Below, in pieces: positions 5,668 through 55,399 of a stretch of 64,000 nt of DNA. Under the pieces are notes generated by a model that saw nothing but the letters and a program-made list of their open reading frames with translations, was not told where the DNA came from and made no database searches. The stretch is taken from assembly GCF_003018235.1 (NCBI RefSeq), contig NZ_CP027437.1; one strand, 5' to 3'. Both the position numbers and the translations under genes were made by a program. This stretch comes from Escherichia coli. Lineage in GTDB: Bacteria; Pseudomonadota; Gammaproteobacteria; Enterobacterales; Enterobacteriaceae. Each line of letters opens with the position of its first letter. Within the stretch, counting starts at the first letter, position 1.

Positions 5668-5675
5668 TACTCGAG

Positions 5676-6818: not shown

Positions 6819-6820
6819 AT

Positions 6821-9050: not shown

Positions 9051-9053
9051 CCG

Positions 9054-10100: not shown

Positions 10101-10109
10101 GCAGAGCTC

Positions 10110-13674: not shown

Positions 13675-13683
13675 GGATGTGAG

Positions 13684-14709
13684 ATGAAAGCGTTATCCAA
13701 ACTGAAAGCGGAAGAGGGCATCTGGATGACCGACGTTCCTGTACCGGAACTCGGGCATAACGATCTGCTGATTAAAATCCGTAAAACAGCCATCTGCGGG
13801 ACTGACGTTCACATCTATAACTGGGATGAGTGGTCGCAAAAAACCATCCCGGTACCGATGGTCGTGGGCCATGAATATGTCGGTGAAGTGGTAGGTATTG
13901 GTCAGGAAGTGAAAGGCTTCAAGATTGGCGATCGCGTTTCTGGCGAAGGCCATATCACCTGCGGTCACTGTCGCAACTGTCGTGGCGGTCGTACCCATCT
14001 GTGCCGCAACACGATCGGCGTCGGCGTTAACCGTCCGGGCTGCTTCGCCGAGTATCTGGTGATTCCGGCGTTCAACGCTTTCAAAATCCCCGACAATATC
14101 TCCGATGATCTGGCTTCCATTTTTGATCCCTTCGGTAACGCCGTGCATACCGCGCTGTCGTTCGATCTGGTGGGTGAAGATGTGCTGGTCTCTGGTGCAG
14201 GCCCGATTGGTATTATGGCGGCGGCGGTGGCGAAACACGTTGGTGCACGTAACGTGGTGATTACTGATGTTAACGAATACCGCCTTGAGTTGGCGCGTAA
14301 AATGGGTATCACCCGTGCGGTTAACGTCGCTAAAGAGAACCTCAATGATGTGATGGCAGAACTGGGCATGACCGAAGGCTTTGATGTCGGTCTGGAAATG
14401 TCCGGTGCGCCACCAGCGTTTCGTACCATGCTCGACACCATGAACCACGGCGGTCGTATTGCGATGCTGGGTATTCCACCGTCTGATATGTCTATCGACT
14501 GGACCAAAGTGATCTTTAAAGGCTTGTTCATTAAAGGTATTTACGGTCGTGAGATGTTTGAAACCTGGTACAAGATGGCGGCGCTGATTCAGTCTGGCCT
14601 CGATCTTTCGCCGATCATTACCCATCGTTTCTCTATCGATGATTTCCAGAAGGGCTTTGACGCCATGCGTTCGGGCCAGTCCGGGAAAGTTATCCTGAGC
14701 TGGGATTAA
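13684..14709 (+). CDS. tdh: L-threonine 3-dehydrogenase
   Basis: 341 aa, Zn-dependent alcohol dehydrogenase motifs ([16 protein letters not shown]); kbl-tdh operon. Confidence 0.9.
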
Positions 14710-14716
14710 CACAAAC

Positions 14717-14741
14717 AAGGGCTGGTATTCCAGCCCTTTTT
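14717..14741 (+). terminator. Rho-independent terminator of the kbl-tdh operon
   Basis: AAGGGCTGG-TATT-CCAGCCCTT hairpin followed by T-run, 8 bp after the tdh stop. Confidence 0.6.
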
Positions 14742-14947
14742 CCTGAGGATAATCTGTTAAATATGTAAAATGCTGTCAGTAAAATAAAGAATGGGTAATT
14801 GCGCTGATCTCTTATATAGCTGTTCTCATTATCTCTCTACCCTGAAGTGACTCTCTCACCTGTAAAAATAATATCTCACAGGCTTAATAGTTTCTTAATA
14901 CAAAGCCTGTAAAACGTCAGGATAACTTCAGAGGTAGTCGGTAATTT

Positions 14948-15982
14948 ATGATGAACAGCACCAATAAACTTAGTGTTATTATTCCGTTATATAATGCGGG
15001 TGATGATTTCCGCACTTGTATGGAATCTTTAATTACGCAAACCTGGACTGCTCTGGAAATCATTATTATTAACGATGGTTCAACGGATAATTCTGTTGAA
15101 ATAGCAAAGCATTACGCAGAAAACTATCCGCACGTTCGTTTGTTGCATCAGGCGAATGCTGGCGCATCGGTAGCGCGTAATCGTGGGATCGAGGTGGCGA
15201 CGGGCAAATATGTCGCTTTTGTCGATGCTGACGATGAGGTCTATCCCACCATGTACGAAACGCTGATGACCATGGCGTTAGAGGACGACCTCGACGTGGC
15301 GCAGTGCAACGCTGACTGGTGTTTTCGTGAAACGGGAGAAACCTGGCAATCCATCCCCAGCGATCGCCTTCGCTCAACCGGCGTATTAACCGGCCCGGAC
15401 TGGCTGCGAATGGGGCTTTCTTCCCGCCGTTGGACTCATGTTGTCTGGATGGGCATTTATCGTCGCGATGTCATTGTTAAAAATAACATTAAATTTATTG
15501 CCGGATTACATCATCAGGATATTGTCTGGACAACAGAATTTATGTTTAACGCGCTACGTGCGCGATATACCGAGCAATCGTTATATAAATATTATCTGCA
15601 TAATACGTCAGTAAGTCGCTTGAATAGACAGGGAAATAAAAACCTTAATTATCAACGCCACTATATTAAGATTACCCGACTGCTAGAGAAATTAAATCGA
15701 AATTATGCCGACAAAATTACGATTTATCCGGAATTTCATCAGCAAATAACTTACGAAGCATTGCGTGTTTGCCATGCGGTGCGCAAAGAGCCGGATATTA
15801 TTACCCGCCAACGGATGATTGCCGAGATATTTACTTCTGGTATGTATAAGCGCCTGATTACCAATGTGCGCAGCGTGAAGGTGGGTTATCAGGCGTTACT
15901 GTGGTCTTTCCGCTTATGGCAATGGCGCGACAAAACGCGGTCGCACCATCGCATTACGCGTAGCGCCTTTAATTTACGCTAG
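14948..15982 (+). CDS. waaH: GT2-family glycosyltransferase (LPS glucuronic acid transferase WaaH/YibD)
   Basis: 344 aa, GT2 signature [13 protein letters not shown]...DADD; position between tdh and yibQ. Confidence 0.8.
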
Positions 15983-16928
15983 CGTTAAGCTTCGCCGCTT
16001 CAGGCTGTTTGCCCCAGCCTTGCCACTGATGCTGGAAGTAAACGATCAGCGTGCTCTGGCTGATGCTTTCGCTTAATACTTCAAAGAAGCGATTAGCATA
16101 AACAGGTTCTATCGGTTTCTTCGGTTTGCACAGCTTCACGCCACGGAACGGATTACGCGGTGTGTCAGGCACAGTGTTTTTCGGCGGTGTAGACGTATCA
16201 ACCTGCGGTTCATTCAGCAAGCTGCTGGCTTTCACCAGCGTAATGTCTGGCGGCAGGTTATAAACCATCTGTTGTAGCACGCGTACCGTTGAAGGGTGAG
16301 GATGCCCAATGGCAATGGTTGAACCGTTGCGACGCGCCAGATCAATTGCGCGATTGAACTGCACACGGATGTCCGCTTCATTTTGCGAATCGTCGAGGAA
16401 CACTTTCCGTTTGATCACCTTCACGCCAGTGCCTTGCGCTGCGCGCATCGCCTGGGTATTACCGATGGTTACGCTGTCGAGGAAGTAAAGATTGTAACGC
16501 TCCAGCGCCTGCATCACTTTCTGCATACCAAACAGGTTAGAGGTCATCTTGCTGCCCATGTGGTTGTTGATCCCCACGGCATAGGGCACGTTATTGACCG
16601 CACTACGAATAATGCGCTCAATTTCGTCGCTGCTCATCTCCGGGCGTAGCGTATTTTTCTCCAGCGGCTGTTTACTCAGTGGTGCCATCGGTAGATGAAT
16701 CAACACTTCGTGACCGCTGTTATGCGCTTTGGTCGCCATCTCTCTGGCGTGTGGTGAATCGGGTAATACAGCGACGGAGATAGCGGAAGGCATCGCCAGC
16801 ACCTGGTTTTCGTTGTGCGGGCGATACCCAAAATCATCAATGACGATGGCAAGTTTGCCAGCAATTACGGGGGAGGAGAGCGCCAACAGAGCGGCAAATG
16901 CAAGAACGTTACGACGAAATGGAAACAA
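15969..16928 (-). CDS. yibQ: Divergent polysaccharide deacetylase family protein
   Basis: 319 aa with N-terminal signal peptide ([24 protein letters not shown]); the 3' end overlaps the waaH 3' end by 14 bp (convergent). Confidence 0.8.
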
Positions 16929-23302: not shown

Positions 23303-23335
23303 GCCGGATGCGATGTAATCATCTATCCGGCATAC
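23303..23335. repeat. REP-like palindromic element between convergent cysE and trmL
   Basis: GCCGGATGCGATGTAATCATCTATCCGGCATAC: GCCGGAT/ATCCGGC arms resembling the E. coli REP consensus. Confidence 0.5.
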
Positions 23336-35694: not shown

Positions 35695-36842
35695 TATTGC
35701 ATTGCTTTATAAGCGGTTACCGCCTCGGATACAACCTCGCTGTTGGCATCAAGACCGGAAATCTGTGCCAGCGCCGCCAGCGGACCTTTGTCAGCGATCA
35801 GTGCTGCCAGTTCCTGAGCCTGCGGATCATCTTCACTGCGGAAGTGCATTGCAGCGGCAATACCTTCAATCAGGTTTTTATGTGGCAGACTATATTCCAG
35901 CGTTCCGAGCAGTGGCTTGATCAGACGGTCGCCAGCACTCAGTTTACGCAGCGGCTGACGGCCTACGCGCTCTACATCATCTTTCAGGTACGGGTTCTCG
36001 AAACGACCGAGGATTTTCCGGATGTACGCCGCATGTTTGTCTGCGTCAAAGCCGTAGCGCTTGATCAATACTGCACCACTTTCTTCCATCGCACCTTTTA
36101 CCACCGCGCGGATTTTCTCGTCGAGAATCGCATCACGAATGGTCTGATGACCCGCCAGTTTTCCGAGGTACGCGGTTATAGCATGACCCGTATTCAGGGT
36201 GAAGAGTTTACGTTCGACAAATGCCATCAGGTTGTCGGTTAACTCCATGCCTGGGATGTTCGGCAGCGCGCCTTTGAACTGGGTTTTATCAACAATCCAT
36301 TCGCTGAATGTTTCTACCGTCACTTCCAGCGGATCGTTGGTTGCAGAAGCCGAAGGCGGCACGATGCGGTCAACGGCGGAATCGACAAAGCCAACGTGTT
36401 CTTCTACCCACGCTTTGGCATCTTCCGGCAGGGCGTTCATCACATGGCCTTTCAGCTGCGTGGTGCCGCGTACCATGTTTTCACAGGCGATAATGTTCAG
36501 CGGGGATTCATTACCTTGTTCTTTACGTTTCACCAGCCCTTTGGCGATTGCCGGGGCAATACGTTCCAGCACAACCGGACCAACGGCGGTAGTGACTAAA
36601 TCAACCAGAGCAATCAGATCAACGACATCATCACCAATGCTGCTGACGGCATTGACGCCGGAAACGGTATCTACCTGCTCGGTTTCACCGACCACATGAA
36701 CCTGATAGCTATGACGGGCATTCAGGGCATCAAGTACCACCTGATTGACATCGGCAAACGTCAGTTGGATACCCGCGTCTGCCAGCAGTTTACCGATAAA
36801 GCCACGACCGATATTACCTGCGCCAAAATGTAATGCTTTCAT
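35694..36842 (-). CDS. mtlD: Mannitol-1-phosphate 5-dehydrogenase
   Basis: ORF track 443 aa reads through intergenic palindromes; true start at ATG 36842 ([20 protein letters not shown], Rossmann) gives 382 aa. Confidence 0.9.
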
Positions 36843-36881
36843 AGTATTAACCTTCATCAATGTTTTTACCCGAGAGGGCTG

Positions 36882-36926
36882 GGGTGAGGCTTTTCCCTCA
36901 CCCAAACCCTCTCCGTGAGGAGAGGG
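36882..36926. repeat. Two adjacent GC-rich perfect hairpins in the mtlA-mtlD intergenic region
   Basis: GGGTGAGG-cttttc-CCTCACCC (36882-36903) and CCCTCTCC-gtga-GGAGAGGG (36907-36926). Confidence 0.5.
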
Positions 36927-36936
36927 TAGGATTGGA

Positions 36937-38850
36937 TTACTTACGACCTGCCAGCAGTTCCAGCACTTCATCCACGCTGGTGGTGTGTGCCAGACGCTCG
37001 ATGACGGATTCATCATCCAGTGCATTGGTCAGGCTGGTGATAACCTGAATGTGCTCGTTGTTACGGGCAGCAATACCAATTACCAGACGGGCAATGTCAT
37101 CTTCTTCTTCACCGAAGCGCACGCCTTCTGGGTACTGGCAGAACACCACGCCCGTTTTCAGTACGCGATCTTTTGCTTCAACCGTACCGTGCGGCACCGC
37201 GATAGACTCACCCAGATAAGTCGGGGTCAGTTTTTCACGATCCAACATCGCCTGAACGTATTCTGGCTCAACGTAACCGCCTTTCACCAGCTGCTCGCCA
37301 GCAAAACGAATCGCTTCTTCTTTGGTTGCCGCTTTGCGACCGAGGAAGATGTTCTCCGCGCCCAGTTTGAACAGGTTAGCACTGGAATCGTCAAAGCTGT
37401 CTTTCAGACTGTCTTTCACTTTTACTTCGTTTTCAGTATGGCGCTGAGCAGCAACCAGACGTTCGGTCAGGCTGGTGTACAGGCCGCTGTCGAGGAAGTT
37501 GGTCAGCGAAATATGCTGTGCCTGCGGAACCTGGCGCATAGCGCGTTCGGTCAGGTCACGGTGAGTGATGACCAGGTCCACATCTGGCGGCAGGTTGTTG
37601 ATCGCGCTGTTAGTAACAGAAATCTGCGACAGACCTGCATCCTGAATTTTCTTACGCAGCACGCCTGCGCCCATCGCACTGGAACCCATACCGGCATCAC
37701 AGGCAACGATGATTTTACGTACGTGGCTCAGGTCGTTAGTCACATCGCCTGCAGACAGCGGAGACGCACCTTTAGACTCAGCTTTCATGTCCTGCATACG
37801 ACGAGTTGCTGCTTCAATATCATCTTCTTCTTTCACTTTGCTGGTTTTCAGCAGAATGGCAGAGACAACGAAGGAGACAGCCATCGCCGCACACACACCC
37901 GCGATGTTAGCGAAATAAGCACCTTTTGGTGTCATCGCCAGTACAGCAAGGATAGAACCCGGAGATGCCGGAGAAACCAGACCACCGCCCAGGATAGTCA
38001 GCGTGAACACGCCAGTCATACCGCCGAGGATAACGGCCAGAATCAGACGCGGATTCATCAGCACATACGGGAAGTAGATTTCGTGGATACCGCCCAGGAA
38101 GTGGATGATTGCCGCACCGCCCGCAGACTGTTTAGCGCTACCACGCCCAAAGAACATGTACGCCAGCAGCACGCCCATACCCGGACCTGGGTTAGCTTCA
38201 ATCAGGAAGAAGATGGATTTACCCAGTTCATGGGACTGCTGAATACCCAGCGGCGAGAAGATACCGTGGTTAATGGCGTTGTTGAGGAACAGGATTTTCG
38301 CCGGTTCAACAAAGATAGACGCCAGCGGCAGCATGTCATGGACAACCATGAAGTTAACGCCCGCAGCCAGCATTTTAGACAGAGCTTCAACAATCGGGCC
38401 AATGCCGAGGAATGCCAGAATAGCGAGGATCATCCCGATGATGCCTGCGGAGAAGTTATTCACCAGCATCTCAAAACCGGATTTGATCTTACCGTCTACC
38501 CAGCGGTCGAAGTGCTTAATGCACCAGCCGCCCAGCGGACCTGCAATCATAGAACCGAGGAACATCGGCATATCTGCGCCGACGATAACGCCCATGGTGG
38601 TGATGGCACCGACTACACCGCCACGTTCGCCGCCTACCAGCTTACCACCGGTATAACCGATCAGCAGCGGCAGGAGATAAGTGATCATCGGCCCGACCAG
38701 CTTCGCCAGCGTTTCGTTCGGTAACCACCCTGTTGGAATAAATAACGCGGTGATGATACCCCACGCGATAAACGCGCCGATATTTGGCATCACCATGTTG
38801 CTGAGGAAACGACCAAAGCTTTGCACTTTGATCTTAATATCGGATGACAT
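36937..38850 (-). CDS. mtlA: PTS mannitol-specific EIICBA component
   Basis: 637 aa; N-terminal membrane EIIC, then EIIB and EIIA domains; upstream of mtlD-mtlR. Confidence 0.9.
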
Positions 38851-39110
38851 AAAAACACCCCTTCTTATGTTTGCTGTCGCGCAGGCTGGAAGCCCGAGGT
38901 TTTTTGTTAATGTGGCGGCAGAGGTAGCCGGACCTTGTAGATACTGCGAAATCTGGCACTGAATCGGTTAACTGTCCAGTCGACGGCCTTTTGTGTGATA
39001 TCAGTCACATAAATATAGGGGGTAGAGAGGTAATTGACGTGATGCTCATCACAAAACGACTGTGTAAAAAAGCAACAAGGCGGCGATTTTCGCTAAAAAT
39101 GGCATTTAAA

Positions 39111-39126
39111 TGTGAGTAATGTCACA
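39111..39126. promoter_or_regulatory. CRP binding site (perfect TGTGA-N6-TCACA) in the mtlA upstream region
   Basis: TGTGAgtaatgTCACA, about 260 bp upstream of the mtlA start. Confidence 0.55.
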
Positions 39127-39154
39127 TTTTTGTTTTGTTAGTTTGTTGAATCTT

Positions 39155-39170
39155 TGTGATCTGAATCACA
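39155..39170. promoter_or_regulatory. Second CRP binding site (perfect TGTGA-N6-TCACA) in the mtlA upstream region
   Basis: TGTGAtctgaaTCACA; a third weaker half-site, TGTGAtctgcaGCATG, lies at 39198-39213. Confidence 0.55.
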
Positions 39171-39386
39171 AGATATTTTCTTACGGCGTTCACCTGATGT
39201 GATCTGCAGCATGTTATGCCTTCGTCATAAAATCGTTATGTAACTAAGCAACTCATCACCTCTAAAAATTATTCTTTGGTGTTATGGCGAGAATCGCGAA
39301 CCCGAATTATTGTCAAAATATCAGCCTGACTCCCTTCTGGCTGCCAGCCAAAAAACAACACCGATAAACGTGAATCCGAGGCAGAT

Positions 39387-39749
39387 ATGTTTCTAAACTA
39401 TTTCGCGTTGGGAGTGCTGATCTTCGTCTTTCTGGTGATTTTTTATGGAATCATCGCGATACATGACATCCCTTATCTGATTGCCAAAAAGCGCAACCAT
39501 CCCCATGCCGACGCTATTCATACGGCGGGCTGGGTGAGCCTGTTTACTCTACATGTTATCTGGCCGTTCCTGTGGATCTGGGCGACGCTCTATCAACCGG
39601 AGCGCGGCTGGGGCATGCAGTCACATGTTGCGTCGCAAGAGAAAGCGACTGACCCGGAAATCGCCGCACTTTCTGACCGAATTTCCCGGCTGGAGCACCA
39701 ACTCGCCGCCGAGAAAAAGACTGACTATTCCACGTTCCCGGAGATCTAA
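39387..39749 (+). CDS. yibI: Small inner membrane protein YibI (DUF3302)
   Basis: 120 aa, N-terminal TM helices; divergent from mtlA and followed 2 bp later by yibH. Confidence 0.75.
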
Positions 39750-39751
39750 AT

Positions 39752-40888
39752 ATGGATCTATTGATTGTTTTAACTTACGTGGCGCTGGCGTGGGCGGTCT
39801 TTAAAATCTTCCGCATTCCGGTGAATCAGTGGACGCTGGCGACGGCGGCGCTGGGAGGCGTGTTTCTGGTGAGTGGTTTGATTTTGTTGATGAACTACAA
39901 CCACCCTTACACTTTTACCGCGCAAAAGGCAGTGATAGCGATCCCCATCACGCCACAGGTGACGGGAATTGTTACTGAAGTCACCGACAAAAATAATCAG
40001 CTTATTCAAAAGGGCGAGGTGCTTTTTAAACTCGACCCGGTTCGTTACCAGGCGCGAGTTGACAGACTTCAGGCTGACCTGATGACGGCGACGCATAATA
40101 TAAAGACGCTGCGCGCGCAGCTCACTGAAGCGCAGGCCAACACCACCCAGGTTTCAGCGGAGCGCGACCGTCTGTTTAAAAATTATCAACGTTATCTGAA
40201 AGGCAGCCAGGCGGCGGTGAATCCGTTCTCGGAACGTGACATCGACGATGCGCGGCAAAATTTCCTCGCGCAGGATGCGCTGGTGAAAGGCTCGGTGGCG
40301 GAGCAGGCGCAGATCCAGAGCCAGCTCGATAGTATGGTTAACGGCGAGCAATCGCAGATTGTGAGCTTAAGAGCGCAACTTACTGAAGCAAAATATAACC
40401 TTGAGCAGACTGTCATTCGCGCGCCGAGCAATGGCTACGTTACTCAGGTACTGATCCGCCCAGGTACATACGCAGCTGCCTTGCCGTTGCGTCCGGTGAT
40501 GGTTTTCATCCCCGAGCAAAAACGGCAAATTGTCGCCCAATTTCGGCAAAACTCGCTGTTACGTCTGAAACCCGGCGATGATGCGGAAGTGGTGTTTAAC
40601 GCGCTACCTGGGCAGGTGTTCCACGGCAAACTGACCAGTATTTTACCTGTCGTGCCAGGCGGTTCTTATCAGGCGCAGGGGGTATTGCAATCATTAACGG
40701 TCGTGCCCGGCACGGACGGTGTGCTGGGAACCATTGAACTGGACCCTAACGATGATATCGATGCCTTACCCGACGGCATCTACGCCCAGGTGGCGGTTTA
40801 CTCCGACCATTTCAGCCATGTTTCGGTGATGCGGAAAGTGCTGCTAAGAATGACCAGCTGGATGCATTATCTTTATTTGGATCATTGA
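39752..40888 (+). CDS. yibH: HlyD-family membrane fusion/secretion protein
   Basis: 378 aa, N-terminal TM anchor, long coiled coil and barrel-sandwich hybrid region. Confidence 0.8.
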
Positions 40889-40958
40889 GACTTATATCAC
40901 CTGTGTTTTGCGTGAGCCTGAGCCATACTGATATTTTTCCTCGCACAAAGGACTCGGC

Positions 40959-41567
40959 ATGAAACTCGTCGGTAGCTACACCAGCCCGTTTGTACGCAAA
41001 CTTTCTATTCTGTTGTTAGAAAAGGGCATAACTTTCGAATTTATTAATGAACTGCCCTATAACGCGGACAACGGCGTGGCGCAATTTAACCCGTTAGGGA
41101 AAGTGCCGGTGCTGGTGACCGAAGAGGGCGAATGTTGGTTTGATTCGCCGATCATCGCTGAATATATTGAATTAATGAATGTCGCTCCGGCGATGTTGCC
41201 GCGCGATCCGCTGGAGTCGTTGCGGGTGCGCAAAATTGAGGCGCTGGCGGATGGCATTATGGATGCCGGGCTGGTATCGGTGCGTGAACAGGCGCGTCCG
41301 GCGGCGCAGCAGTCTGAAGATGAATTGTTACGCCAGCGGGAGAAAATCAACCGCAGTCTGGATGTGCTGGAAGGATATCTGGTCGATGGCACGCTCAAAA
41401 CCGATACGGTCAATCTGGCGACTATCGCCATTGCCTGTGCCGTCGGATATCTCAATTTCCGCCGCGTTGCGCCAGGCTGGTGTGTCGACCGCCCACACTT
41501 AGTCAAACTGGTCGAAAACCTGTTTAGCCGCGAAAGTTTTGCTCGCACCGAACCGCCAAAGGCTTGA
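40959..41567 (+). CDS. yibF: Glutathione S-transferase-like protein
   Basis: 202 aa GST fold ([24 protein letters not shown]...); position before selA. Confidence 0.8.
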
Positions 41568-41664
41568 TGCGCGATATGTCCTCCTGACCCATCTCACGTT
41601 ACAATCCGTGGTTATGTTAAACGCCCTTCTCCGTGTGAGAGGGCCTTGATCAGCCAGGTTTCCT

Positions 41665-43056
41665 ATGACAACCGAAACGCGTTCCCTCTATAGTCAACTT
41701 CCGGCTATTGATCGCTTATTGCGCGATAGCTCCTTCCTTTCTTTGCGTGATACTTATGGTCACACCCGCGTGGTGGAATTGCTGCGTCAGATGCTTGACG
41801 AAGCGCGAGAAGTGATTCGTGACAGCCAGACGCTGCCCGCATGGTGTGAAAACTGGGCGCAAGAAGTCGATGCCCGACTGACAAAGGAGGCGCAGAGCGC
41901 GCTGCGTCCGGTGATCAACCTGACGGGAACCGTGCTGCATACCAATCTTGGGCGAGCTTTACAGGCGGAAGCCGCAGTGGAAGCCGTTGCGCAGGCTATG
42001 CGTACGCCAGTGACCCTCGAGTACGATCTGGACGACGCCGGACGCGGACATCGCGATCGGGCGCTGGCGCAGCTGCTGTGCCGCATTACGGGAGCGGAAG
42101 ATGCCTGTATCGTTAATAACAATGCGGCGGCGGTGTTATTGATGTTGGCGGCCACTGCCAGCGGGAAAGAGGTGGTGGTATCTCGCGGCGAACTGGTGGA
42201 GATTGGCGGCGCGTTTCGTATTCCTGATGTCATGCGTCAGGCAGGCTGCACCCTACACGAAGTGGGGACCACCAACCGCACGCACGCTAATGATTATCGT
42301 CAGGCGGTGAATGAAAATACCGCGCTGTTGATGAAAGTACATACCAGTAACTACAGCATTCAGGGATTCACCAAAGCGATAGATGAAGCGGAACTGGTGG
42401 CGCTCGGCAAAGAGCTGGATGTTCCCGTAGTGACTGATTTAGGCAGTGGCTCGCTGGTTGATCTTAGCCAGTACGGTTTGCCGAAAGAGCCAATGCCGCA
42501 GGAGTTGATTGCGGCGGGTGTCAGTCTGGTGAGCTTCTCCGGCGACAAGTTGTTAGGCGGGCCGCAGGCAGGAATTATTGTTGGTAAAAAAGAGATGATC
42601 GCCCGCCTGCAAAGCCACCCGCTGAAGCGTGCATTACGCGCGGATAAAATGACCCTCGCGGCGCTGGAAGCCACGTTGCGTCTTTATTTACACCCTGAAG
42701 CACTGAGTGAAAAATTACCGACCCTGCGCCTGCTTACCCGCAGCGCAGAGGTCATTCAAATCCAGGCACAACGTTTACAGGCCCCCCTTGCCGCACATTA
42801 CGGCGCGGAGTTTGCGGTACAGGTTATGCCATGTCTTTCGCAGATTGGCAGTGGTTCGCTGCCGGTTGATCGCCTGCCGAGCGCGGCATTAACGTTTACA
42901 CCCCATGATGGACGCGGTAGCCACCTTGAGTCATTAGCCGCCCGCTGGCGTGAATTGCCAGTGCCGGTGATTGGTCGTATTTATGACGGACGATTGTGGC
43001 TGGATTTACGCTGCCTTGAAAATGAGCAACGGTTTTTGGAGATGTTGTTGAAATGA
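41665..43056 (+). CDS. selA: L-seryl-tRNA(Sec) selenium transferase
   Basis: 463 aa; start overlaps selB by 4 bp. Confidence 0.9.
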
Positions 43057-44897
43057 TTATTGCGACTGCCGGACACGTTGACCACGGCAAAACAACCTTA
43101 TTGCAGGCGATTACTGGCGTAAATGCCGACCGTCTGCCGGAAGAAAAAAAGCGCGGCATGACCATCGATCTCGGCTATGCCTACTGGCCGCAGCCGGATG
43201 GCCGTGTGCCTGGTTTTATCGACGTACCCGGTCATGAAAAGTTTCTTTCCAACATGCTGGCTGGCGTTGGTGGTATCGATCACGCGCTGTTGGTGGTGGC
43301 GTGCGATGACGGCGTGATGGCACAGACCCGTGAGCATCTGGCGATTTTGCAGCTGACCGGTAACCCGATGCTGACAGTGGCGCTGACCAAAGCCGATCGC
43401 GTGGACGAAGCGCGTGTTGATGAGGTTGAACGCCAGGTAAAGGAGGTGCTGCGGGAATACGGTTTTGCTGAGGCAAAACTGTTTATCACCGCAGCAACCG
43501 AAGGTCGGGGAATTGATGCCCTGCGCGAGCATTTGCTTCAGTTACCAGAACGTGAACACGCCAGCCAACATAGTTTCCGCCTCGCGATCGACCGTGCATT
43601 TACCGTAAAAGGTGCCGGGCTGGTCGTCACCGGTACGGCGTTAAGCGGGGAAGTGAAGGTAGGCGATTCACTATGGCTGACTGGTGTAAATAAACCGATG
43701 CGCGTGCGTGCGCTGCATGCGCAAAATCAGCCAACAGAAACTGCCCATGCCGGTCAGCGTATCGCGCTTAACATCGCGGGTGATGCGGAAAAAGAGCAGA
43801 TTCACCGTGGTGACTGGCTGCTTGCCGATGCGCCGCCGGAGCCTTTCACACGGGTGATTGTCGAGCTTCAAACCCATACACCGCTGACCCAGTGGCAGCC
43901 GCTGCATATTCACCACGCCGCCAGCCACGTCACGGGACGCGTTTCGCTGCTGGAAGATAACCTTGCCGAGCTGGTGTTCGACACGCCGCTATGGCTGGCG
44001 GATAACGATCGCCTGGTGCTGCGCGATATCTCGGCCCGCAACACGCTGGCGGGGGCGCGTGTGGTGATGCTTAACCCGCCGCGTCGCGGTAAGCGTAAGC
44101 CGGAATATCTGCAATGGCTGGCGTCTCTTGCACGGGCGCAGAGCGATGCCGATGCGTTATCTGTTCATCTGGAACGCGGAGCGGTTAACCTTGCGGATTT
44201 CGCCTGGGCACGGCAGCTCAACGGCGAAGGGATGCGCGAACTGCTGCAACAGCCTGGCTATATTCAGGCTGGTTATAGCTTGTTGAATGCGCCGGTTGCC
44301 GCCCGCTGGCAGCGGAAAATTCTCGACACATTAGCGATTTATCATGAGCAACATCGCGATGAACCTGGTCCTGGGCGCGAACGTCTGCGACGTATGGCGT
44401 TGCCAATGGAAGATGAAGCGCTGGTACTGTTGCTGATTGAAAAGATGCGCGAAAGCGGCGACATCCTCAGTCATCACGGTTGGCTGCATCTGCCGGATCA
44501 TAAAGCGGGCTTCAGCGAAGAGCAGCAGGTCATCTGGCAAAAAGCAGAGCCGCTGTTTGGTGACGAACCGTGGTGGGTGCGTGACCTGGCAAAAGAGACG
44601 GGAACCGACGAGCAGGCAATGCGCCTGACGCTACGCCAGGCGGCGCAGCAGGGGATAATTACCGCGATCGTTAAAGATCGTTATTACCGTAACGATCGGA
44701 TTGTCGAGTTTGCCAATATGATCCGCGATCTCGATCAGGAGTGTGGTTCAACCTGCGCGGCGGATTTCCGCGATCGCTTAGGTGTAGGCCGAAAGCTGGC
44801 AATTCAGATTTTGGAATATTTTGACCGCATTGGCTTTACGCGTCGTCGTGGAAATGATCATTTATTGCGCGACGCATTATTATTTCCGGAAAAATAA
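43053..44897 (+). CDS. selB: Selenocysteine-specific translation elongation factor
   Basis: 614 aa; N-terminal GTPase motifs ([23 protein letters not shown]). Confidence 0.9.
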
Positions 44898-44957
44898 GGA
44901 AATGATTAATTAAGTTTTAAAATAAATTAATACAAAATTCTTATGAATTTAAAAAAA

Positions 44958-44995
44958 GCACATTGTTTAATGAATACAATGTGCTTTTTATTAGA
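44958..44995 (+). terminator. Rho-independent terminator downstream of selB
   Basis: AGCACATTG-tttaatgaata-CAATGTGCT perfect 9-bp stem followed by TTTTTATT, preceded by an A-run (potentially bidirectional). Confidence 0.65.
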
Positions 44996-45086
44996 TTAAT
45001 TTTGATAATCAATAATACTGATCATATTTTCAAATGAAAATCCTCAGTAAGCTGCCCGCCCTTTTTTACACTTTCAGGAGTGTGTT

Positions 45087-46238
45087 ATGGCAGCTTCAAC
45101 CTTTTTTATTCCTTCCGTGAATGTTATTGGTGCTGATTCATTGAATGATGCAATGAATATGATGGCAGATTATGGATTTACCCGTACCTTAATTGTCACT
45201 GACAATATGTTAACGAAATTGGGTATGGCGGGTGATGTGCAAAAAGCACTGGAAGAACGCAATATTTTTAGTGTTATTTATGATGGCACCCAACCTAACC
45301 CCACCACGGAAAACGTCGCTGCAGGTTTGAAATTACTTAAAGAAAATAATTGCGATAGCGTGATTTCCTTAGGCGGTGGTTCTCCACACGACTGCGCAAA
45401 AGGTATTGCGCTGGTGGCAGCCAATGGTGGCGATATTCGCGATTATGAAGGCGTTGACCGCTCTGCAAAACCGCAGCTGCCGATGATCGCCATCAATACC
45501 ACGGCGGGTACGGCCTCTGAAATGACCCGTTTCTGCATCATCACTGACGAAGCGCGTCACATCAAAATGGCGATTGTTGATAAGCACGTGACCCCGCTGC
45601 TTTCTGTCAATGACTCCTCTCTGATGATCGGTATGCCGAAGTCACTGACCGCCGCAACCGGTATGGATGCCTTAACACACGCTATTGAAGCGTATGTTTC
45701 AATTGCTGCAACGCCGATCACTGACGCTTGCGCACTGAAAGCGGTGACCATGATTGCCGAAAATCTGCCGTTAGCCGTTGAAGATGGCAGCAATGCTAAA
45801 GCGCGTGAAGCAATGGCTTATGCCCAGTTCCTCGCTGGCATGGCATTCAACAACGCATCTCTTGGTTATGTTCATGCGATGGCGCACCAGCTGGGCGGTT
45901 TCTACAACCTGCCACATGGTGTATGTAATGCCGTTCTGCTGCCACACGTTCAGGTGTTCAACAGCAAAGTCGCTGCTGCGCGTCTGCGTGACTGTGCTGC
46001 TGCCATGGGCGTTAACGTGACAGGCAAAAATGACGCGGAAGGCGCAGAAGCGTGCATCAATGCCATCCGTGAACTGGCGAAGAAAGTGAATATCCCGGCA
46101 GGCCTGCGTGACCTGAACGTGAAAGAAGAGGATTTCGCGGTACTGGCCACCAATGCCCTGAAAGATGCGTGTGGGTTTACTAACCCGATTCAGGCAACTC
46201 ACGAAGAGATTGTGGCAATTTATCGCGCTGCGATGTAA
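45087..46238 (+). CDS. yiaY: Iron-containing (group III) alcohol dehydrogenase
   Basis: 383 aa, Fe-ADH family; GGGSPHD motif; position before aldB. Confidence 0.85.
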
Positions 46239-47977: not shown

Positions 47978-47981
47978 TGTG

Positions 47982-48020
47982 AAAGGCAGGCAACGTTAAT
48001 AGTTGTCTGCCTTTGTTTTA
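47982..48020. terminator. Putative bidirectional terminator between convergent aldB and the 359-aa nuclease-like gene
   Basis: AAAGGCAGGCAAC-gttaata-GTTGTCTGCCTTT (13-bp stem, 1 mismatch) followed by a T-rich run. Confidence 0.5.
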
Positions 48021-49097
48021 GTTGTATAAAGCGGCAGTCGCTTTTAACTCATCGCTGAAAGAATAAATATCATCGAGAGATTCAATAGGATGGCGGGTTT
48101 CGTTTTTCTCTAAGTCAAATAAACCAATATATTTTTGATTTCGATTGAAATGTAATCTACAGAGTGGCTTTCGATTATTGTCATCTACAAGTATACCAAA
48201 ATAGCTTTTTGTATCTCTGTGGACTATTCGTGGTGCATCAAGCACTACGCGAACTATAGCTTTAACAATATGAAATCCTTCAAGTTCCTCCATAGTAGTA
48301 GCAATATCGGTTTCTTCTTTATTAATACATTCTACTTCCTCATTGTGTGAATTCGAATCAATTACAGATAATGACCCACCACCTATTGCCGATTTCAATC
48401 TTTCGTTTATTTGAGAGTTAATATATTGATTGGCAGCTTTCTTTGTTAATTTTGCAAACGTATCTTTTACCTTTTGTGTTAACATACCTTCATAAATTCT
48501 TGCTGCAAAGAATTTTACAAAATCCTCTTCAGGATTATTCATTTGTGCATGGAGAACTTTTTTAATTAAACTAACATATTTTAATTCACCTGCAGCATTA
48601 ATTATTGATTCCAAATCAAATGCTGATTTAGTAAGCTTCTTTATCTCGGGAACAACTGTTTCATCTAAGTCAAGTAGATCTATCTCAAGAAATGGTTTTT
48701 CATCCATTTTATTAGGTGCTTCTAAATCAGTAAAAAATTTATAAACTTGTCCATTGGTTAGAATAGATATTCTTGCATTTGTTACATGAAAGTATCGAAA
48801 AAGCTGTGAAGCATGATTTATATTTAGAGGATCGCCAATTTTTTTGCATTCAATGAGAATCTGAACCTCGCTATTTTTTAAGATTGCATAGTCAATCTTT
48901 TCACCTTTCTTCGTTCCAATATCGCATACAAACTCTGGGATAACTTCGGTAGGATCAAAGACATCATAACCTAACACATTGTTAATGAACGGCATTACGA
49001 AAGCATTTTTGGTAGCTTCCTCCGTTTCAATGACTCCGGCTTGTTGTTTTATTTTTGCGGATAATGAATTCAGCTTATCTATAAACTCCATAGACAT
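48018..49097 (-). CDS. Hypothetical protein with N-terminal HsdR_N-like PD-(D/E)xK nuclease domain and an uncharacterised C-terminal domain
   Basis: 359 aa; AAGGAG Shine-Dalgarno 6 nt upstream; N-terminus has the HsdR_N pattern (TEEATKNAFVMPFINNVLGYD, then IDYAIL ... ILIECKK as D...ExK); gene is markedly AT-rich. Confidence 0.6.
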   Translation of the reverse strand: MSMEFIDKLNSLSAKIKQQAGVIETEEATKNAFVMPFINNVLGYDVFDPTEVIPEFVCDIGTKKGEKIDYAILKNSEVQILIECKKIGDPLNINHASQLFRYFHVTNARISILTNGQVYKFFTDLEAPNKMDEKPFLEIDLLDLDETVVPEIKKLTKSAFDLESIINAAGELKYVSLIKKVLHAQMNNPEEDFVKFFAARIYEGMLTQKVKDTFAKLTKKAANQYINSQINERLKSAIGGGSLSVIDSNSHNEEVECINKEETDIATTMEELEGFHIVKAIVRVVLDAPRIVHRDTKSYFGILVDDNNRKPLCRLHFNRNQKYIGLFDLEKNETRHPIESLDDIYSFSDELKATAALYN

Positions 49098-49571
49098 TAT
49101 AACTCCTTTTATATATATTTAATAAAAATGCGTTTTATAAAAATATAGAAAATATTTATATATTAACGCGTTATCATTGGTCATAGTTAATGTATAACAC
49201 ACAAAAAATAATGTTTGCACATTGTAAATACAATGGTGAAACAAACTTGATATTTATCAAGAAAATAAAACAATGTCTTTTATTGGTTGTTTTAAACGTT
49301 CAATGAATACGAGTTGGAGCTATAGCAAGACTAGCTTCGATATCGCATGGATAATCTAATACAGATTTTTTAACACCTAATACTATGAGTTATATGTAAA
49401 TTGCGAGCATCCTCGCATCTTTTCAACAAGTTACTGCACACCGTTATTCTCCTTCCGAGCGGCATTCCTGAGTCAACTTTATCCCCCTGACGGCCCATAT
49501 AAATCGCGCTATCGTGATTGTTATCGCTAATTGTGTGTGTATCGTGTGTATAATCATGGAAGGGCAGGGAT

Positions 49572-49757
49572 GTGAAAAGTGCAGACGTGATCGCCATCCT
49601 GAAGCAGCATGGCTGGGAACATATTCGAACCCGTGGCAGTCATCATCAGTTCCGCCACCCTGTTCATCCGGGTCTGGTGACGGTTCCGCACCCTAAAAAA
49701 GATATTAAGCCCGGTACGCTGGCGCAAATTGGGCGTCAGGCTGGTTTAACATTTTAA
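49572..49757 (+). CDS. hicA: HicA-family toxin (mRNA interferase)
   Basis: 61 aa; HicA motif HGWEHIRTRGSHHQFRHP...VPHPKKDIKPGTLAQIGRQAGL; GTG start assumed, exact start uncertain. Confidence 0.75.
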   Translation: MKSADVIAILKQHGWEHIRTRGSHHQFRHPVHPGLVTVPHPKKDIKPGTLAQIGRQAGLTF

Positions 49758-49773
49758 AATTTCAGGAGGCAAT

Positions 49774-50184
49774 ATGTTTTATCCCGCCTATATCCACAGT
49801 GATCCTGACGGCAGCGCCAGCGGTTTTTTCCCTGATGTTCCAGGCTGTTATTTTGCTGGTGATACGCTGGACAACGCTTTCCAGGATGCGCGAAGTGCAC
49901 TGGTCGCGCACTTCGAAACCTTATGCGAGATGAATGAAGAGTTGCCGCTTCCAGGCTCTGTGGAAACACATCTGGTCCAGCGTGCGCAGGACTTTATTGG
50001 CGGGCAATGGTTGCTGGTGGATATCAATATGAATCAGTTCGAAGGTCGGGCTGAACGTATCAATATTACGATGCCGAAAAGATTACTGAACAAGATTGAT
50101 ACCTACGTGCGCAATAACCCAGACTACGCCAACAGAAGTGCGTTTCTGGCGGAAGCTGCCCGGCGTGTATTGCCGGGCGCTTAA
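49774..50184 (+). CDS. hicB: HicB-family antitoxin (RNase H-like fold with C-terminal ribbon-helix-helix)
   Basis: 136 aa; AGGAGG Shine-Dalgarno; C-terminal RHH-like segment (ITMPKRLLNKIDTYV...SAFLAEAARRVL); 16 bp after hicA. Confidence 0.75.
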   Translation: MFYPAYIHSDPDGSASGFFPDVPGCYFAGDTLDNAFQDARSALVAHFETLCEMNEELPLPGSVETHLVQRAQDFIGGQWLLVDINMNQFEGRAERINITMPKRLLNKIDTYVRNNPDYANRSAFLAEAARRVLPGA

Positions 50185-50255
50185 TCCCGCGTTTCGATGG
50201 TTGGCGGGCAACCGCACCGATATGTTGATACTGATAAGACGCGTTAAGCGTCGCA

Positions 50256-52220
50256 TCATGCGCTGGTTTCCTCATTCACCCAGATCCGCATTTCGCCTTC
50301 ACCCCGGTTAGCCCAGCTAAACCACGGGATAAACGTCAGAGTTTGCGGCTGGCGTTTGGCTGGCGCGCTGTCGTAATGCCACAGCGGTTGCTGCTCTGGA
50401 TTGCTCTGTTCATACCGGTAACCCGGTGCCTGGATTAAGATCTTATGGCTGAACAATCCCTTGCCTTCAAAGGTCGTAAATGGCGCATCGGCGGGCAGCC
50501 ACAGGTTATGTAGTGACTCGCCGTTGTCGGCCTGTTCCAGGCAATACACCAGCGGGCCGCGCTGAATCGCCACTTTTCCGGCGACGTGACGCACCAGCGG
50601 GTTACCGTAAACGCGGCGTACCGGCATCGGCAAAGTCAGATTCAGCGTATCGCCCTCCTGCCATTCGCGGGTAATGTGCAAATACCCTTTACGAATATCC
50701 TGCCCGACCTCTTCCCCATTCAATATGATCTGCGGCTGTGTGCACCAGTCCGGCAGACGTAAAGCCAGCGTATGACGCACCGGCTGGGGCGATTCAACCG
50801 CAATTGTCACCTGTTCCTGCCACGGATAGTTCCCGCTAATCCGCAGGCGCAACGTGCCATTTTCTACCGGCACTTCCATGCTGTTTCCTGCATATATGTT
50901 GATATACAACGCATCTTCACGCGGCGTGTAGAGATAATGACCAATCGAGGTCAGTACGCGGGCGATATTTGGCGGACAACAAGCGCAGCCAAACCAACGC
51001 TGGCGGATCGGCTTAACGTGATCGTAGATATGGTTGAATTTCAGCGATTTTGGATGTACTTCCAGCGGATTCACATAGAAGAAATGTTTGCCATCCAGTG
51101 CCATGCCGCCGAGCACAGTGTTGTACAGTGCGCGCTCCATCACATCGGCATATTGACTGTCGCCTTCCATTTCCAGCATTCGTCGGGCGAACATCATCAG
51201 GCCGATGGAAGCACAACTTTCGGCGTAAACCGTGTCATTCGGCAGATCGTAATCGCTGCTAAACGCTTCGCCGCTGCTTTGTGAGCCAATGCCGCCGGTA
51301 ATATATAACTGACGCTGGGCCATATTGTTCCACAGCCGCAGGCAATCCTGACGCTTGCTTTCATCGTGACTTAAACGCGCCAGATGTGCGACGCCAGTCA
51401 TCAGGTAGACAAAGCGTACTGCATGTCCGATGGCGGTTTGTTGCTGTGCGATGGGCAAATGCGCCTGGCTGTAGGCTTTATCTTTCACCATCCACGCCGG
51501 GCCGTAGGTGTGCCAGTGCGAGGTCTGCCCGCGCTTTTCATATTCCTGGTCGTAATAGTGCGGTTGCGCACCACGCTGTTCGACAAAATAGTTCGTCAGC
51601 GCCAGGTAGCGCGGCTCTTCGGTCACTTCATACAGGCGCATTAGTGCCAGTTCAATTTCCGGGTGACCAGGATAACCGTGTAACTTACTTTCACCTGGAC
51701 CAAATACGCTGTCGATATGATCGGCCAGACGGCAAACCACTTCCAGCAAGCGCCGCTTGCCCGTGGCCTGGAAGAAGGCGACTCCGGCTTCAATCAGATG
51801 ACCGGCGCAGTAAAGTTCATGACACTCCGCCAGATTGCTCCAGCGTTCTTCGGGCGCTTTTACCGTAAAGTAAGTATTGAGATAGCCATCTTCGCACTGG
51901 GCGGAGGCGATCAGTTCAATCACCTCGTCAGCAGTTTTTTCCAGTTCGGCATCCGGCTTCTGGCACAGCGACCAGGCTACCGCTTCCAGCCATTTGGCGA
52001 CGTCGCTGTCCTGAAACACCATCCCGTAAAATTCACCGTCTTGCAGTCCTGCGGCAATGCGAAAGTTTTCAATCGCATGGCTGGGTTCCGCTTCTGGGAT
52101 ACGATCGTTCAAGGCGTCCCACTGATAAGGAATCACCACATCGCGGACCAGTTGTTGGTACTGACCGAGGAACGGATCGCTGACCGTCAGTTTATGCAGA
52201 TCGACTTCCGAAATGTTCAT
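50256..52220 (-). CDS. Glycoside hydrolase family 127 (DUF1680; beta-L-arabinofuranosidase-like)
   Basis: ORF track starts at an upstream TTG; ATG at 52220 (MNISEVDLHKL) is preceded by AAGGAG and gives about 654 aa; Cys-rich motif WFGCACCPPNIARVL. Confidence 0.75.
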   Translation of the reverse strand: MNISEVDLHKLTVSDPFLGQYQQLVRDVVIPYQWDALNDRIPEAEPSHAIENFRIAAGLQDGEFYGMVFQDSDVAKWLEAVAWSLCQKPDAELEKTADEVIELIASAQCEDGYLNTYFTVKAPEERWSNLAECHELYCAGHLIEAGVAFFQATGKRRLLEVVCRLADHIDSVFGPGESKLHGYPGHPEIELALMRLYEVTEEPRYLALTNYFVEQRGAQPHYYDQEYEKRGQTSHWHTYGPAWMVKDKAYSQAHLPIAQQQTAIGHAVRFVYLMTGVAHLARLSHDESKRQDCLRLWNNMAQRQLYITGGIGSQSSGEAFSSDYDLPNDTVYAESCASIGLMMFARRMLEMEGDSQYADVMERALYNTVLGGMALDGKHFFYVNPLEVHPKSLKFNHIYDHVKPIRQRWFGCACCPPNIARVLTSIGHYLYTPREDALYINIYAGNSMEVPVENGTLRLRISGNYPWQEQVTIAVESPQPVRHTLALRLPDWCTQPQIILNGEEVGQDIRKGYLHITREWQEGDTLNLTLPMPVRRVYGNPLVRHVAGKVAIQRGPLVYCLEQADNGESLHNLWLPADAPFTTFEGKGLFSHKILIQAPGYRYEQSNPEQQPLWHYDSAPAKRQPQTLTFIPWFSWANRGEGEMRIWVNEETSA

Positions 52221-52230
52221 CTTGTGCTCC

Positions 52231-53631
52231 TTAAGGCTGTACATGACGCTGACGCAGGTCGCTAGCAATGCGTGACATCATAGGGTTATTGAGTTTGCAA
52301 AAGCGGATCGCCATCGCCAGCAGTAGGTGGAATAGCGCAGGCAGCAATGTTTCCATCGCCGTGATCCCGCCAAGCGAACTGGCGGTCTGGTTTTCTACGC
52401 CTGGCTGGTAGGCGACAAAAATAAACAGCAGGCTGATGATCCCGGCGCTGGAGGCCCAGGCCAGTTTGATGAAAAACAGATTGAAGGCGAAGTTCATGCC
52501 GGAAGAACGTACGCGGGTTTTCCACTCGCCGTAGTCATCGGCAAAGGCCATCAATGAGAAGTGCAGTGGCAATGTGAAGCCAAGAATCACGCCATTACCG
52601 AGGATCACCGCCAGCCACAGCGTTTGATAAGCCGGGCCGGAGGGCAGGAACCACATCAACACCGCCAGTGAAGCGAGGAGCAGGTTGGTGTAGTAATAAA
52701 TTTTGACGGTATCGAAACGCCGCGTTAACGGGCTGACAATCACCGAGCCGATAATGGAGGCGAAGGTGACCATAGTGAAGAACAGCGACGTGTAGCCCGT
52801 ACTGCCTTGTAAGACGTAGGTAATGAAGTACATATACCCACCGCCGCGAATATTAAAGACGTTAATCAGCAGGAAAGACATGACCAGCATCAGCAGCAGT
52901 TGGTCGTTGTTTCGCAGCCCGGCAAGATGTTCGCGCAGGGTAAATTTCCCCATTGTGGAGAGTGGTACCCGTTCACGAACCCAGAAGAAACAGCACAGGA
53001 ACATCACCACAGCGATGGCGCACAGCACGCCGACGCCCAGTTGATAGCCGCGCGCGGCATTACCCTGACCGAAGAGATCCACCATCCACGGTAAGCCTAC
53101 CGAAACCAGAAATCCCGCTACACCGCAGAGAACGAATCGCCAGGACTGGCAGGAGATCACTTCATTGTGGCGGGTGGTCATGGTGTTGATCAGCGCGCAG
53201 TACGGCACGTTGATGGCGGTATAACCGACTGAAAGGAGCAGGTAAGTGCCGAACGCCCAGGCGATTTTTACTCCCATGCTGGCATCTGGCACGGTGAACG
53301 TCAGGATGCCGATAATGCCGATGGGAATGGCAATCCATAACTGCCACGGACGAAAGCGCCCCCAGTGACTTTGCGTCCGGTCGGCAATGACGCCCATCAC
53401 CGGGTCGGAGATGGCATCAAACACGCGCAGTGCAATAAACAGCGTGCCGACCAGCGCCGGAGTTAAGCCAAAAACGTCGGTGTAGAAAAAGGTGAGAAAG
53501 TTCATGATCAGGCAAGTTATTACGGTGCCGCCTGCGTCACCCAGGCCGTAGCCTATTTTTTCCCGTACAGATAACGCATCGTCAATTTTACCTTTAGCGA
53601 TATCAGCGGTAGTAATCGGTGTAGAGGTCAT
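52231..53631 (-). CDS. MFS glycoside-pentoside-hexuronide (GPH):cation symporter
   Basis: 466 aa, polytopic; GPH signature [25 protein letters not shown]; its stop lies 10 bp before the GH127 start. Confidence 0.8.
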
Positions 53632-53856
53632 AGATATTCCTCGTGAATAGGGAGCAATTTTTAGTTTTATTGCAATGACCTGATTAATTCTGCCGTGAAC
53701 GGGAATATCAACAAGGCGAGAAAAGAGTAAAAAAAGGTGACGATTCCGACCTGAATTTAAAAGTGTGAATTGGATCAGGTGAAATTAATGTTTTTGATTA
53801 ATAATCAAAAGGTAATGTGTTTAATCATTAATGAATAAGCGGGAAATTACATATCA

Positions 53857-54672
53857 ATGCTCGAATTATCCATGACGTTACCGATTAAAGTGCAAAATGG
53901 TGGATTATTTATTTCCCGTGGCGTAGGGAGGCATCCGGCAAGGCGGCTGGAGTCATGGGAAATTATCTTTGTCGAAAAAGGTCGATTAGCGATTCAGGAA
54001 GAAGAGCGGATATTTCTGGTCGATGCGGGAGAGAGTTTATTACTCTGGCCGAACCGACAGCATGTTGGGGTAGAGGATTTTCCCGCCGATCTCAAATTTT
54101 ACTGGCTGCATTTTGAGGTTAAAGCGCCGGATAGCGACCCGCGCTGGCTCACTCATCTTAGCGTGCCGCAACAAACGAAGGTTGCCGATCCGCAGGCGCT
54201 GGTGGCCCTGTTTCGCCAGTTCTTAAGCGAACAGGAAAAGCATCAACGCACTCCGGCGCTGGAGTTTATTGTGCTGCTGATTTTGCAGCAGCTCACCCGT
54301 GACGCGCGTCTTGATGAACAGGCCGATGCCGCAGGTACCACGCTTGCCTGGAAAGCGCAGAAACTGATCCGCACGCAATATCATCGCCCGCTTTCTACGG
54401 CGCTTTTAGCCCGCGAGCTGTACTGCAATGCCGATTATCTTGGGCGTGTCTATCGGCGGGTGTTTCATCTGACGTTAACAGAAGCAATTCATCGCCAGCG
54501 AGTGCGCGAAGCCGAAAAGCTGTTAATTAGCGAAGCGCGATCGCTCACTGAAGTGGCGGCGTTGTGCGGGTTTAATGACGTTGGCTATTTCCGGCAGATT
54601 TTTCGCAAACACACCGGTTTAACGCCAGCTGCGTGGAAGCGACGTTACAGCAAGGAACATATCAATTCGTAG
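53857..54672 (+). CDS. AraC/XylS-family transcriptional regulator
   Basis: 271 aa, N-terminal cupin-like domain and C-terminal double HTH (...EVAALCGFNDVGYFRQIFRKHTGLTPAAWKR); divergent from the transporter-GH127 pair. Confidence 0.8.
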   Translation: MLELSMTLPIKVQNGGLFISRGVGRHPARRLESWEIIFVEKGRLAIQEEERIFLVDAGESLLLWPNRQHVGVEDFPADLKFYWLHFEVKAPDSDPRWLTHLSVPQQTKVADPQALVALFRQFLSEQEKHQRTPALEFIVLLILQQLTRDARLDEQADAAGTTLAWKAQKLIRTQYHRPLSTALLARELYCNADYLGRVYRRVFHLTLTEAIHRQRVREAEKLLISEARSLTEVAALCGFNDVGYFRQIFRKHTGLTPAAWKRRYSKEHINS

Positions 54673-54703
54673 TGCCGGGGCAATGAAGCCCCGGCGTGAG
54701 GGA

Positions 54704-55399
54704 TTACTGCCCGTAATAGGCATTGGCCCCATGCTTACGCAGGTAGTGCTTATCCAACAGTTCGTTTTGCATCGCAGGAAGCTGCGGCGCAAGCTGACGC
54801 GAGAACAGGCCCATATAGGCACACTCTTCCAGCACCACGGCGTTATGCACTGCATCGGCGGCATTTTTTCCCCAGGCGAACGGGCCGTGAGAATGTACCA
54901 GAACCGCCGGGATTTGCGCTGGACTCCTGCCGCGTTCTTCGAGGGTTTCAATGATCACTTCGCCAGTCTGGTATTCATACTCGCCGTTGATCTCTTCTGC
55001 GGTCATCAGGCGCGTGCAGGGGATGGCTCCATAGAAGTAATCGGCGTGCGTGGTGCCCCAGGCGGGGAGATCCAGCCCGGCCTGTGACCAGATGGTCGCG
55101 TGGCGCGAGTGGGTATGCACAATGCCACCGATTTCGGCATAGCGACGGTAGAGCGCCAGATGCGTTGGCGTGTCGGACGAGGGCTTTTTGCTGCCTTCCA
55201 CCCCCTTACCGCTGGCTATCTCAACCACCACCATATCGTCGGCGGTCATCACGTCGTACTCGACGCCGGAAGGTTTGATTACCATCCATTGCCGCGTTTC
55301 GTCTACCGCGCTGACATTGCCCCAGGTGAACGTCACCAGATGGTGAGCGGGAAGTGCCAGATTTGCCGCCAGCACGTCGGCTTTCAGTTGCTCTAACAT
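54704..55399 (-). CDS. sgbE: L-ribulose-5-phosphate 4-epimerase
   Basis: 231 aa class II aldolase/epimerase fold; last gene of the yiaK-sgbE operon. Confidence 0.85.

Follow-up and report, generated by a model that had tools for sequence, protein, structure and literature searches.

The 70 bp that separate yibH from yibF in the stretch of Escherichia coli DNA analyzed here (64 kb in all, hereafter the window) are very probably the ancestral, never-occupied form of the yibH-yibF spacer, ordinary intergenic DNA in which the lineage of the source strain has kept the original state. In E. coli K-12 the same position holds the RhsA element, none of which is present in the window. The presence/absence polymorphism at yibH-yibF is in itself ordinary and already known, having been on record since 1990 and taken up again in 2009.

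The yibH-yibF junction in the window and in K-12

In the window the site is bordered on its left by yibH and on its right by yibF, which is followed by selA and selB. Gene yibI, the first member of the yibIH pair, precedes yibH, and mtlA lies upstream of yibI on the minus strand (ORF list). The genes and the spacer are:

39387-39749, plus strand: yibI, encoding a DUF3302 protein of 120 aa (ORF list; Pfam PF11742, 2.7e-41; annotated as yibI in matching genomes)
39752-40888 (stop included), plus strand: yibH, encoding an HlyD-family membrane-fusion/periplasmic adaptor protein of 378 aa (NCBIfam and Pfam)
40889-40958, plus strand: yibH-yibF intergenic spacer of 70 bp, the unoccupied RhsA site
40959-41567, plus strand: yibF, encoding a glutathione S-transferase-like protein of 202 aa (NCBIfam equivalog NF007682, 7e-123)
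41665-43056, plus strand: selA (ORF list; NCBIfam equivalog)
43053-44897, plus strand: selB (ORF list; NCBIfam equivalog)

An earlier, sequence-only reading of this DNA had placed the end of yibH at 40888, the start of yibF at 40959 and a spacer of 70 bp between them, all of which proved exact by the sequence and the ORF list. The adjacency of the two genes is a statement of gene order, so chance is not at issue. The YibH protein of the window is 100% identical to that of K-12 (tblastn). Neither tblastn with K-12 RhsA nor blastn with the whole 8,249-bp element returned a match to Rhs sequence in the 64-kb window, and no ORF corresponding to a YD-repeat core (ca. 1,200–1,400 aa, from a GC-rich core of 3.7 kb) was present in it.

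The annotation of K-12 MG1655 (NC_000913.3) locates the two flanking genes as follows:

3,761,347-3,761,955, minus strand: yibF
3,770,243-3,771,379, minus strand: yibH

Between them are annotated rhsA, yibA, yibJ, yibG, yibS, yibW, yibV and yibU. The gene order that the sequence-only reading had given for K-12, with the RhsA element and yibA, yibJ and yibG between yibF and yibH, is therefore correct, and the two genes are not directly adjacent in that reference. Local blastn of the window against the reverse-complemented K-12 locus set the breakpoints at 40889 and 40922. Window positions 40700-40889 match K-12 3,770,431-3,770,242 perfectly, and 40922-41098 likewise match 3,761,992-3,761,816, so that window and K-12 agree completely for about 180 bp to either side of the junction. 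Between the breakpoints the window has 32 bp (40890-40921) and K-12 has 8,249 bp (NC_000913.3 3,761,993-3,770,241). The spacer accordingly consists of two parts:

40890-40921, plus strand: 32-bp segment ACTTATATCACCTGTGTTTTGCGTGAGCCTGA, present in the empty allele only (blastn breakpoints)
40922-40958, plus strand: yibF leader/promoter-proximal segment of 37 bp, common to the empty and the RhsA-bearing alleles and, from 40922 onward, 100% identical to K-12

The RhsA locus of K-12, an Rhs/YD-repeat polymorphic toxin locus, thus stands at the homologous position, with flanks that are 100% identical up to the breakpoints, but the element itself is absent from the window. That the spacer represents an insertion site in its empty state, as had been proposed, holds with regard to the unoccupied allele; a clean insertion it is not, as 32 bp were swapped for 8,249 bp. 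The K-12 element has a core of 56–65% GC and a tail mostly of 27–44% GC, apart from one 500-bp bin of 51% that covers the yibJ core fragment, and its flanks have 51–55% GC. In composition the RhsA element is foreign and composite, its core being GC-rich and its tips AT-rich.

Frequency of the empty and occupied states in E. coli

The distribution of both junction types was determined in 5,426 complete E. coli genomes. The contiguous junction of the empty form was found in 1,521 of them (28%), and the 32-bp segment in ca. 1,522, every time at yibH-yibF. The K-12-type junction was observed on the yibF side in 3,745 genomes and on the yibH side in 3,723, giving ca. 3,730 genomes (ca. 69%) with K-12 junctions overall, and other contents made up ca. 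3% of the collection. In occupied genomes homology to the window ends at the same two points, 40889 and 40922. Strains CFT073, UTI89, Nissle 1917, F11, BEN2908, CE10 and O145:H28 are empty; K-12, W, O157:H7, O111 and O91 are occupied. The existence of two major alleles with fixed junctions points to a single ancient event. Phylogroup E is mixed, with O157:H7 occupied and O145:H28 empty, which indicates that the state was switched by recombination in some lineages.

Outgroup evidence for the ancestral state

A scan of species-representative genomes for YibF yielded 55 loci, which were then searched by tblastn with YibI, YibH, YibF, SelA and RhsA. Synteny of yibF and selA was kept in nearly all of these 55 loci from other species. 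The arrangement yibI-yibH-yibF-selA without Rhs was found in Escherichia whittamii, in Escherichia sp. E1V33 and in two divergent E. coli-like representatives, as well as in Citrobacter amalonaticus, C. koseri, Kluyvera, Lelliottia, Huaxiibacter, Pluralibacter and several other Enterobacteriaceae. Outgroup spacers between yibH and yibF measure 61–92 bp, with the exception of C. koseri (174 bp). Those of other Escherichia are almost identical to the 70 bp of the window, and the spacer of C. amalonaticus is recognisably similar.

A position-weight matrix was built from the 28 nt upstream of CCATACT, a motif of the spacer described below, in 26 unique non-Escherichia sequences. On this matrix the window segment scored 12.9 bits, with an empirical p of ~3e-5 per position and of ~1.6e-4 after correction for five offsets. 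Judged by this score, the 32-bp segment is a homologue of the spacers of other genera, i.e. ancestral spacer. Deletion of RhsA would be unable to recreate these 32 bp, and together with the homology to outgroups this identifies the empty form as ancestral and not as the result of a deletion.

An empty spacer could also have been regained after occupation, if an occupied allele had been swapped for an empty one by homologous recombination in yibH and yibF. State switching is real, as O145:H28 is empty and its relative O157:H7 occupied, and the ca. 180 bp of complete identity to K-12 on each side of the junction would be in line with such an exchange. Secondary loss is nevertheless an unlikely origin for the spacer of the window, which is of the conserved ancestral type and includes 32 bp that are absent from RhsA-bearing genomes and that simple deletion could not restore. 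In addition, the identity of the window to K-12 across 8 kb (97.8%) hardly differs from that to CFT073 (97.6%) or O145:H28 (97.7%), and these near-equal distances give no hint of a recent K-12-like import. The best complete-genome match to the window reached 99.3% over 16 kb; strain 118UI is 100% identical to the window at the junction and 96.4–99.3% identical over the remainder, with lower values in a YadA-type adhesin gene. We infer from these comparisons that the original empty state was retained vertically in the source lineage.

Conserved features of the spacer

The 37 bp adjacent to yibF contain the following elements:

40923-40929, plus strand: CCATACT box, invariant across genera
40924-40929, plus strand: CATACT, a putative -10 hexamer with 4/6 matches, including A2 and T6
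40948-40952, plus strand: Shine-Dalgarno AAGGA, 6 nt before the yibF ATG

Alignment of 26 enterobacterial yibF upstream regions with MAFFT gave the consensus ATCnCCTGCCTTTT-N-CCTGAGCCATACTTAT-TTTTTGTTGGCAAAAAGGAC-ATG. Six residues of the CCATACT(N)A box (C, A, T, A, T and A) do not vary among the 26 aligned sequences, and CCATACT precedes the yibF start codon by ca. 30 nt whatever gene stands upstream. A second motif, CTGCC/CTGTG-TTTT, is located 22 nt upstream of CCATACT, within the 32-bp segment, its CTGCC part lying ca. 17–18 nt upstream of CATACT; in some genera it constitutes the 3' half of a hairpin followed by a T-run, the terminator of the upstream gene. The CCATACT box is probably the -10 element of yibF, and its invariance, combined with yibF-selA-selB synteny, suggests a conserved yibF(-selAB) promoter. 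No canonical sigma-70 promoter emerged from a consensus scan of the spacer, and a simple scan predicted no intrinsic terminator in it, so that these functional labels derive from conservation only.

Two further candidates for a function of the region were discarded. An anti-Shine-Dalgarno hairpin, formed between the T-run motif and AAAGGA, folded no better than shuffled sequences (single-sequence z = +0.88), and RNAalifold returned a consensus structure of 0 pairs for the 26 sequences. SELEX and BglJ-RcsB papers also mention rhsA and yibF, but the sites they describe fall within rhsA or upstream of it and have no bearing on the empty spacer.

Other inserts at the yibH-yibF site

Within Escherichia, at least four different states of the yibH-yibF site are found. 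Apart from the RhsA element, a minimum of three further inserts have entered the spacer in this genus, with the CCATACT box and the leader preserved each time. In E. coli 09-02E (NZ_AP022650.1) an island of 10.35 kb and 36.5% GC is bordered by the yibH stop on one side and by a divergent spacer copy on the other, and in E. albertii (CP099910.1) an insert of 860 bp with a MOSC/YiiM-like gene of 215–230 aa lies between yibH and yibF. In Escherichia sp. MOD1-EC7003 the yibF side shows a K-12-type junction, together with 184 bp of the left end of RhsA at 92% identity; this locus may represent an RhsA-type element of another Escherichia species that has decayed or been rearranged. The contents are:

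5636-15990 of the extracted 09-02E locus: helix-turn-helix regulator, chaperone-usher fimbrial operon and S6-family (SPATE-type) autotransporter peptidase
9141-10000 of the extracted CP099910.1 locus: E. albertii insert
1-2962 of the extracted MOD1-EC7003 locus: 157-aa ORF, H-repeat (DDE_Tnp_1_assoc) transposase fragment and 229-aa ORF, no rhsA

Like RhsA, the 09-02E island and the E. albertii insert are placed between the yibH stop and the CCATACT box, but their content is unrelated, and both are absent from the window. Homology of the RhsA element to these two inserts was considered and rejected, as none was detected beyond a GGGGARGGGG decamer that follows the yibH stop in K-12 and 09-02E: immediately after this stop the 09-02E island starts with GGGGAAGGGG and the K-12 RhsA element with the similar GGGGAGGGGGG. 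Separately, one E. albertii strain was seen to carry an additional copy of IS1 between yibH and yibF.

Mode of entry of the RhsA element

The junctions are identical in ca. 3,700 genomes and other islands are found in the same yibH-yibF spacer, both of which would be expected if RhsA were mobile by transposition or site-specific recombination and the empty spacer were its excision scar or attachment site. One ancient event would, however, equally give identical junctions, and the anatomy of the locus makes a mobile element highly improbable. The aligned K-12 junctions contain neither a target-site duplication nor terminal repeats, whether inverted or direct, local repeats around the window junction amounted to short matches at chance level, and 32 bp were replaced, not duplicated; the locus was on these grounds rejected as a target site of a transposon or IS. 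An integrase-type att site was likewise rejected, with no tRNA within positions 35000-46000 of the window and no integrase among the annotated genes of the K-12 RhsA element, which is also without an active transposase. An assembly artefact, in which the repeat-rich Rhs element collapsed out of the assembly, can be dismissed almost entirely: multi-copy Rhs cores can break short-read assemblies, but collapse would not yield a specific 32-bp ancestral segment, and 1,521 complete genomes, those of CFT073, UTI89 and Nissle 1917 among them, share the junction.

The boundary of the K-12 element next to yibF was also analyzed. Upstream of rhsA, 117 bp are common to RhsC, within a 236-bp alignment of 94.5% identity that reaches into the rhsA/rhsC coding region, and of the region upstream of rhsA only the 73 bp adjoining yibF (CACCATGATAAATATG...CCCATCACCAG) have no counterpart in RhsC. 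The final 23 nt of this tip, CTGCCCTTTTTCCCATCACCAGG, carry CTGCC-TTTT with a spacing of 23 nt, a 1-nt offset from the 22 nt found in other genera. MAFFT aligned the K-12 tip in register with the other sequences, and on the outgroup matrix it gave a p of ~0.04. The tip resembles E. albertii, and the BLAST alignment between E. albertii and K-12 extends 17 nt beyond the boundary. A tentative reading of these similarities is that the last ca. 23–73 bp of the K-12 'element' do not belong to the insert but are ancestral spacer in a strongly diverged allelic form, closest to that of E. albertii. If so, a divergent Escherichia-like donor that already bore RhsA at this site might have passed the locus to E. 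coli by homologous replacement, and later recombination might have sharpened the boundary. A synthetic query consisting of an RhsA-free spacer with the K-12-type 73 bp matched 0 of the 5,426 genomes at a coverage of at least 80%, and the evolutionary intermediate is thus absent from the collection.

Other variable regions of the window

Several further differences from related strains were noted. A segment of ca. 1.4 kb (47979-49398), located between aldB and hicA, is missing in the otherwise similar strain 118UI. Within it, an ORF on the minus strand (48018-49097) encodes 359 aa with matches to HSDR_N (2e-11) and HSDR_N_2 (8e-8) and no helicase part, and may be a stand-alone nuclease or defence gene. 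From ca. 49570 to 54800, a hicA/hicB toxin-antitoxin pair and genes for a GH127 glycoside hydrolase, an MFS transporter and an AraC regulator stand between aldB and araD/sgbE, an arrangement also present in strain 118UI; CFT073, O145:H28, 09-02E and E. albertii have instead a Fic-family gene between yiaY and aldB. The aldB region is therefore a second variable spot, ca. 6–9 kb downstream of the yibH-yibF site.

On the minus strand, positions 27777-32951 hold an ORF of 1,724 aa for a YadA-family trimeric autotransporter adhesin with an ESPR signal, similar to UpaG/EhaG. The identity of this region to strain 118UI is 88–93%, against 96.4–99.3% for the rest of the window, which indicates a divergent or mosaic adhesin allele. 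Strain 118UI also carries IS1397 between trmL and cysE (5617-7048 of the extracted locus), which is absent at positions 23317-23319 of the window.

Discussion

The favoured history of the site, in which the spacer of the window was never occupied, would run as follows. The 3' 37 bp of the ancestral spacer carry the ribosome-binding site of yibF together with CCATACT, the probable -10 of a yibF(-selAB) promoter, and the 5' 32 bp would derive from the yibH terminator-tail or -35 region (CTGCCTTTT motif) of other Enterobacteriaceae. The 32 bp would have been displaced, in the lineage from which phylogroups A and B1 and most of E descend, by a composite segment of foreign origin made of the GC-rich rhsA core and AT-rich tips with toxin, immunity and orphan genes. 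This displacement would have occurred by illegitimate recombination or allelic replacement, and not by transposition or site-specific integration, and the alleles would later have spread through homologous recombination in the flanks. The lineage of the source strain would have retained the original empty state.

Both alleles have a history in the literature. Feulner et al., in 1990, reportedly compared rhsA in K-12 with a Rhs-free isolate and contrasted 8,249 bp with an 'unrelated 32-bp sequence'; the 32 bp and 8,249 bp computed here agree with these figures. We take the spacer of the window to be their 'Rhs0' allele of the rhsA locus, from which it shows no difference in kind, the site and the sizes being the same. 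What goes beyond that description are the counts over 5,426 genomes, the comparison with outgroups that shows the 32 bp to be ancestral, and the interpretation of the spacer in functional terms. The added value is modest: the 'unrelated' 32 bp are recognized as ancestral spacer, inserts at the site are recurrent, and CCATACT is kept across genera in every state.

The yibF/yibH site was later catalogued as Rhs locus 10, variably present among E. coli strains and inferred to postdate the split from B2-type 'pathogenic' strains (Jackson et al. 2009, PMC2935791). In that work presence and absence were scored in 20 strains, and breakpoints and spacer were left undescribed. The same source gives 'rearrangement hotspot' as the historical name of the Rhs repeats, derived from recombination between rhsA and rhsB (PMC2935791). 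The sequence-only reading had spoken of a known rearrangement-hotspot insertion site; the locus is indeed a known variable one, but the term names the repeats and does not describe a property of the site.

With the original state kept, the source strain has neither an RhsA toxin/immunity cassette nor an rhsA repeat for rhsA-rhsB unequal crossing-over. Without the cassette it is presumably sensitive to the RhsA-type effectors of other strains, and without the repeat it has no rhsA copy able to recombine with rhsB. At the level of the species, with 28% of genomes empty, 69% occupied and the junctions fixed, the yibH-yibF locus is a handy lineage marker.
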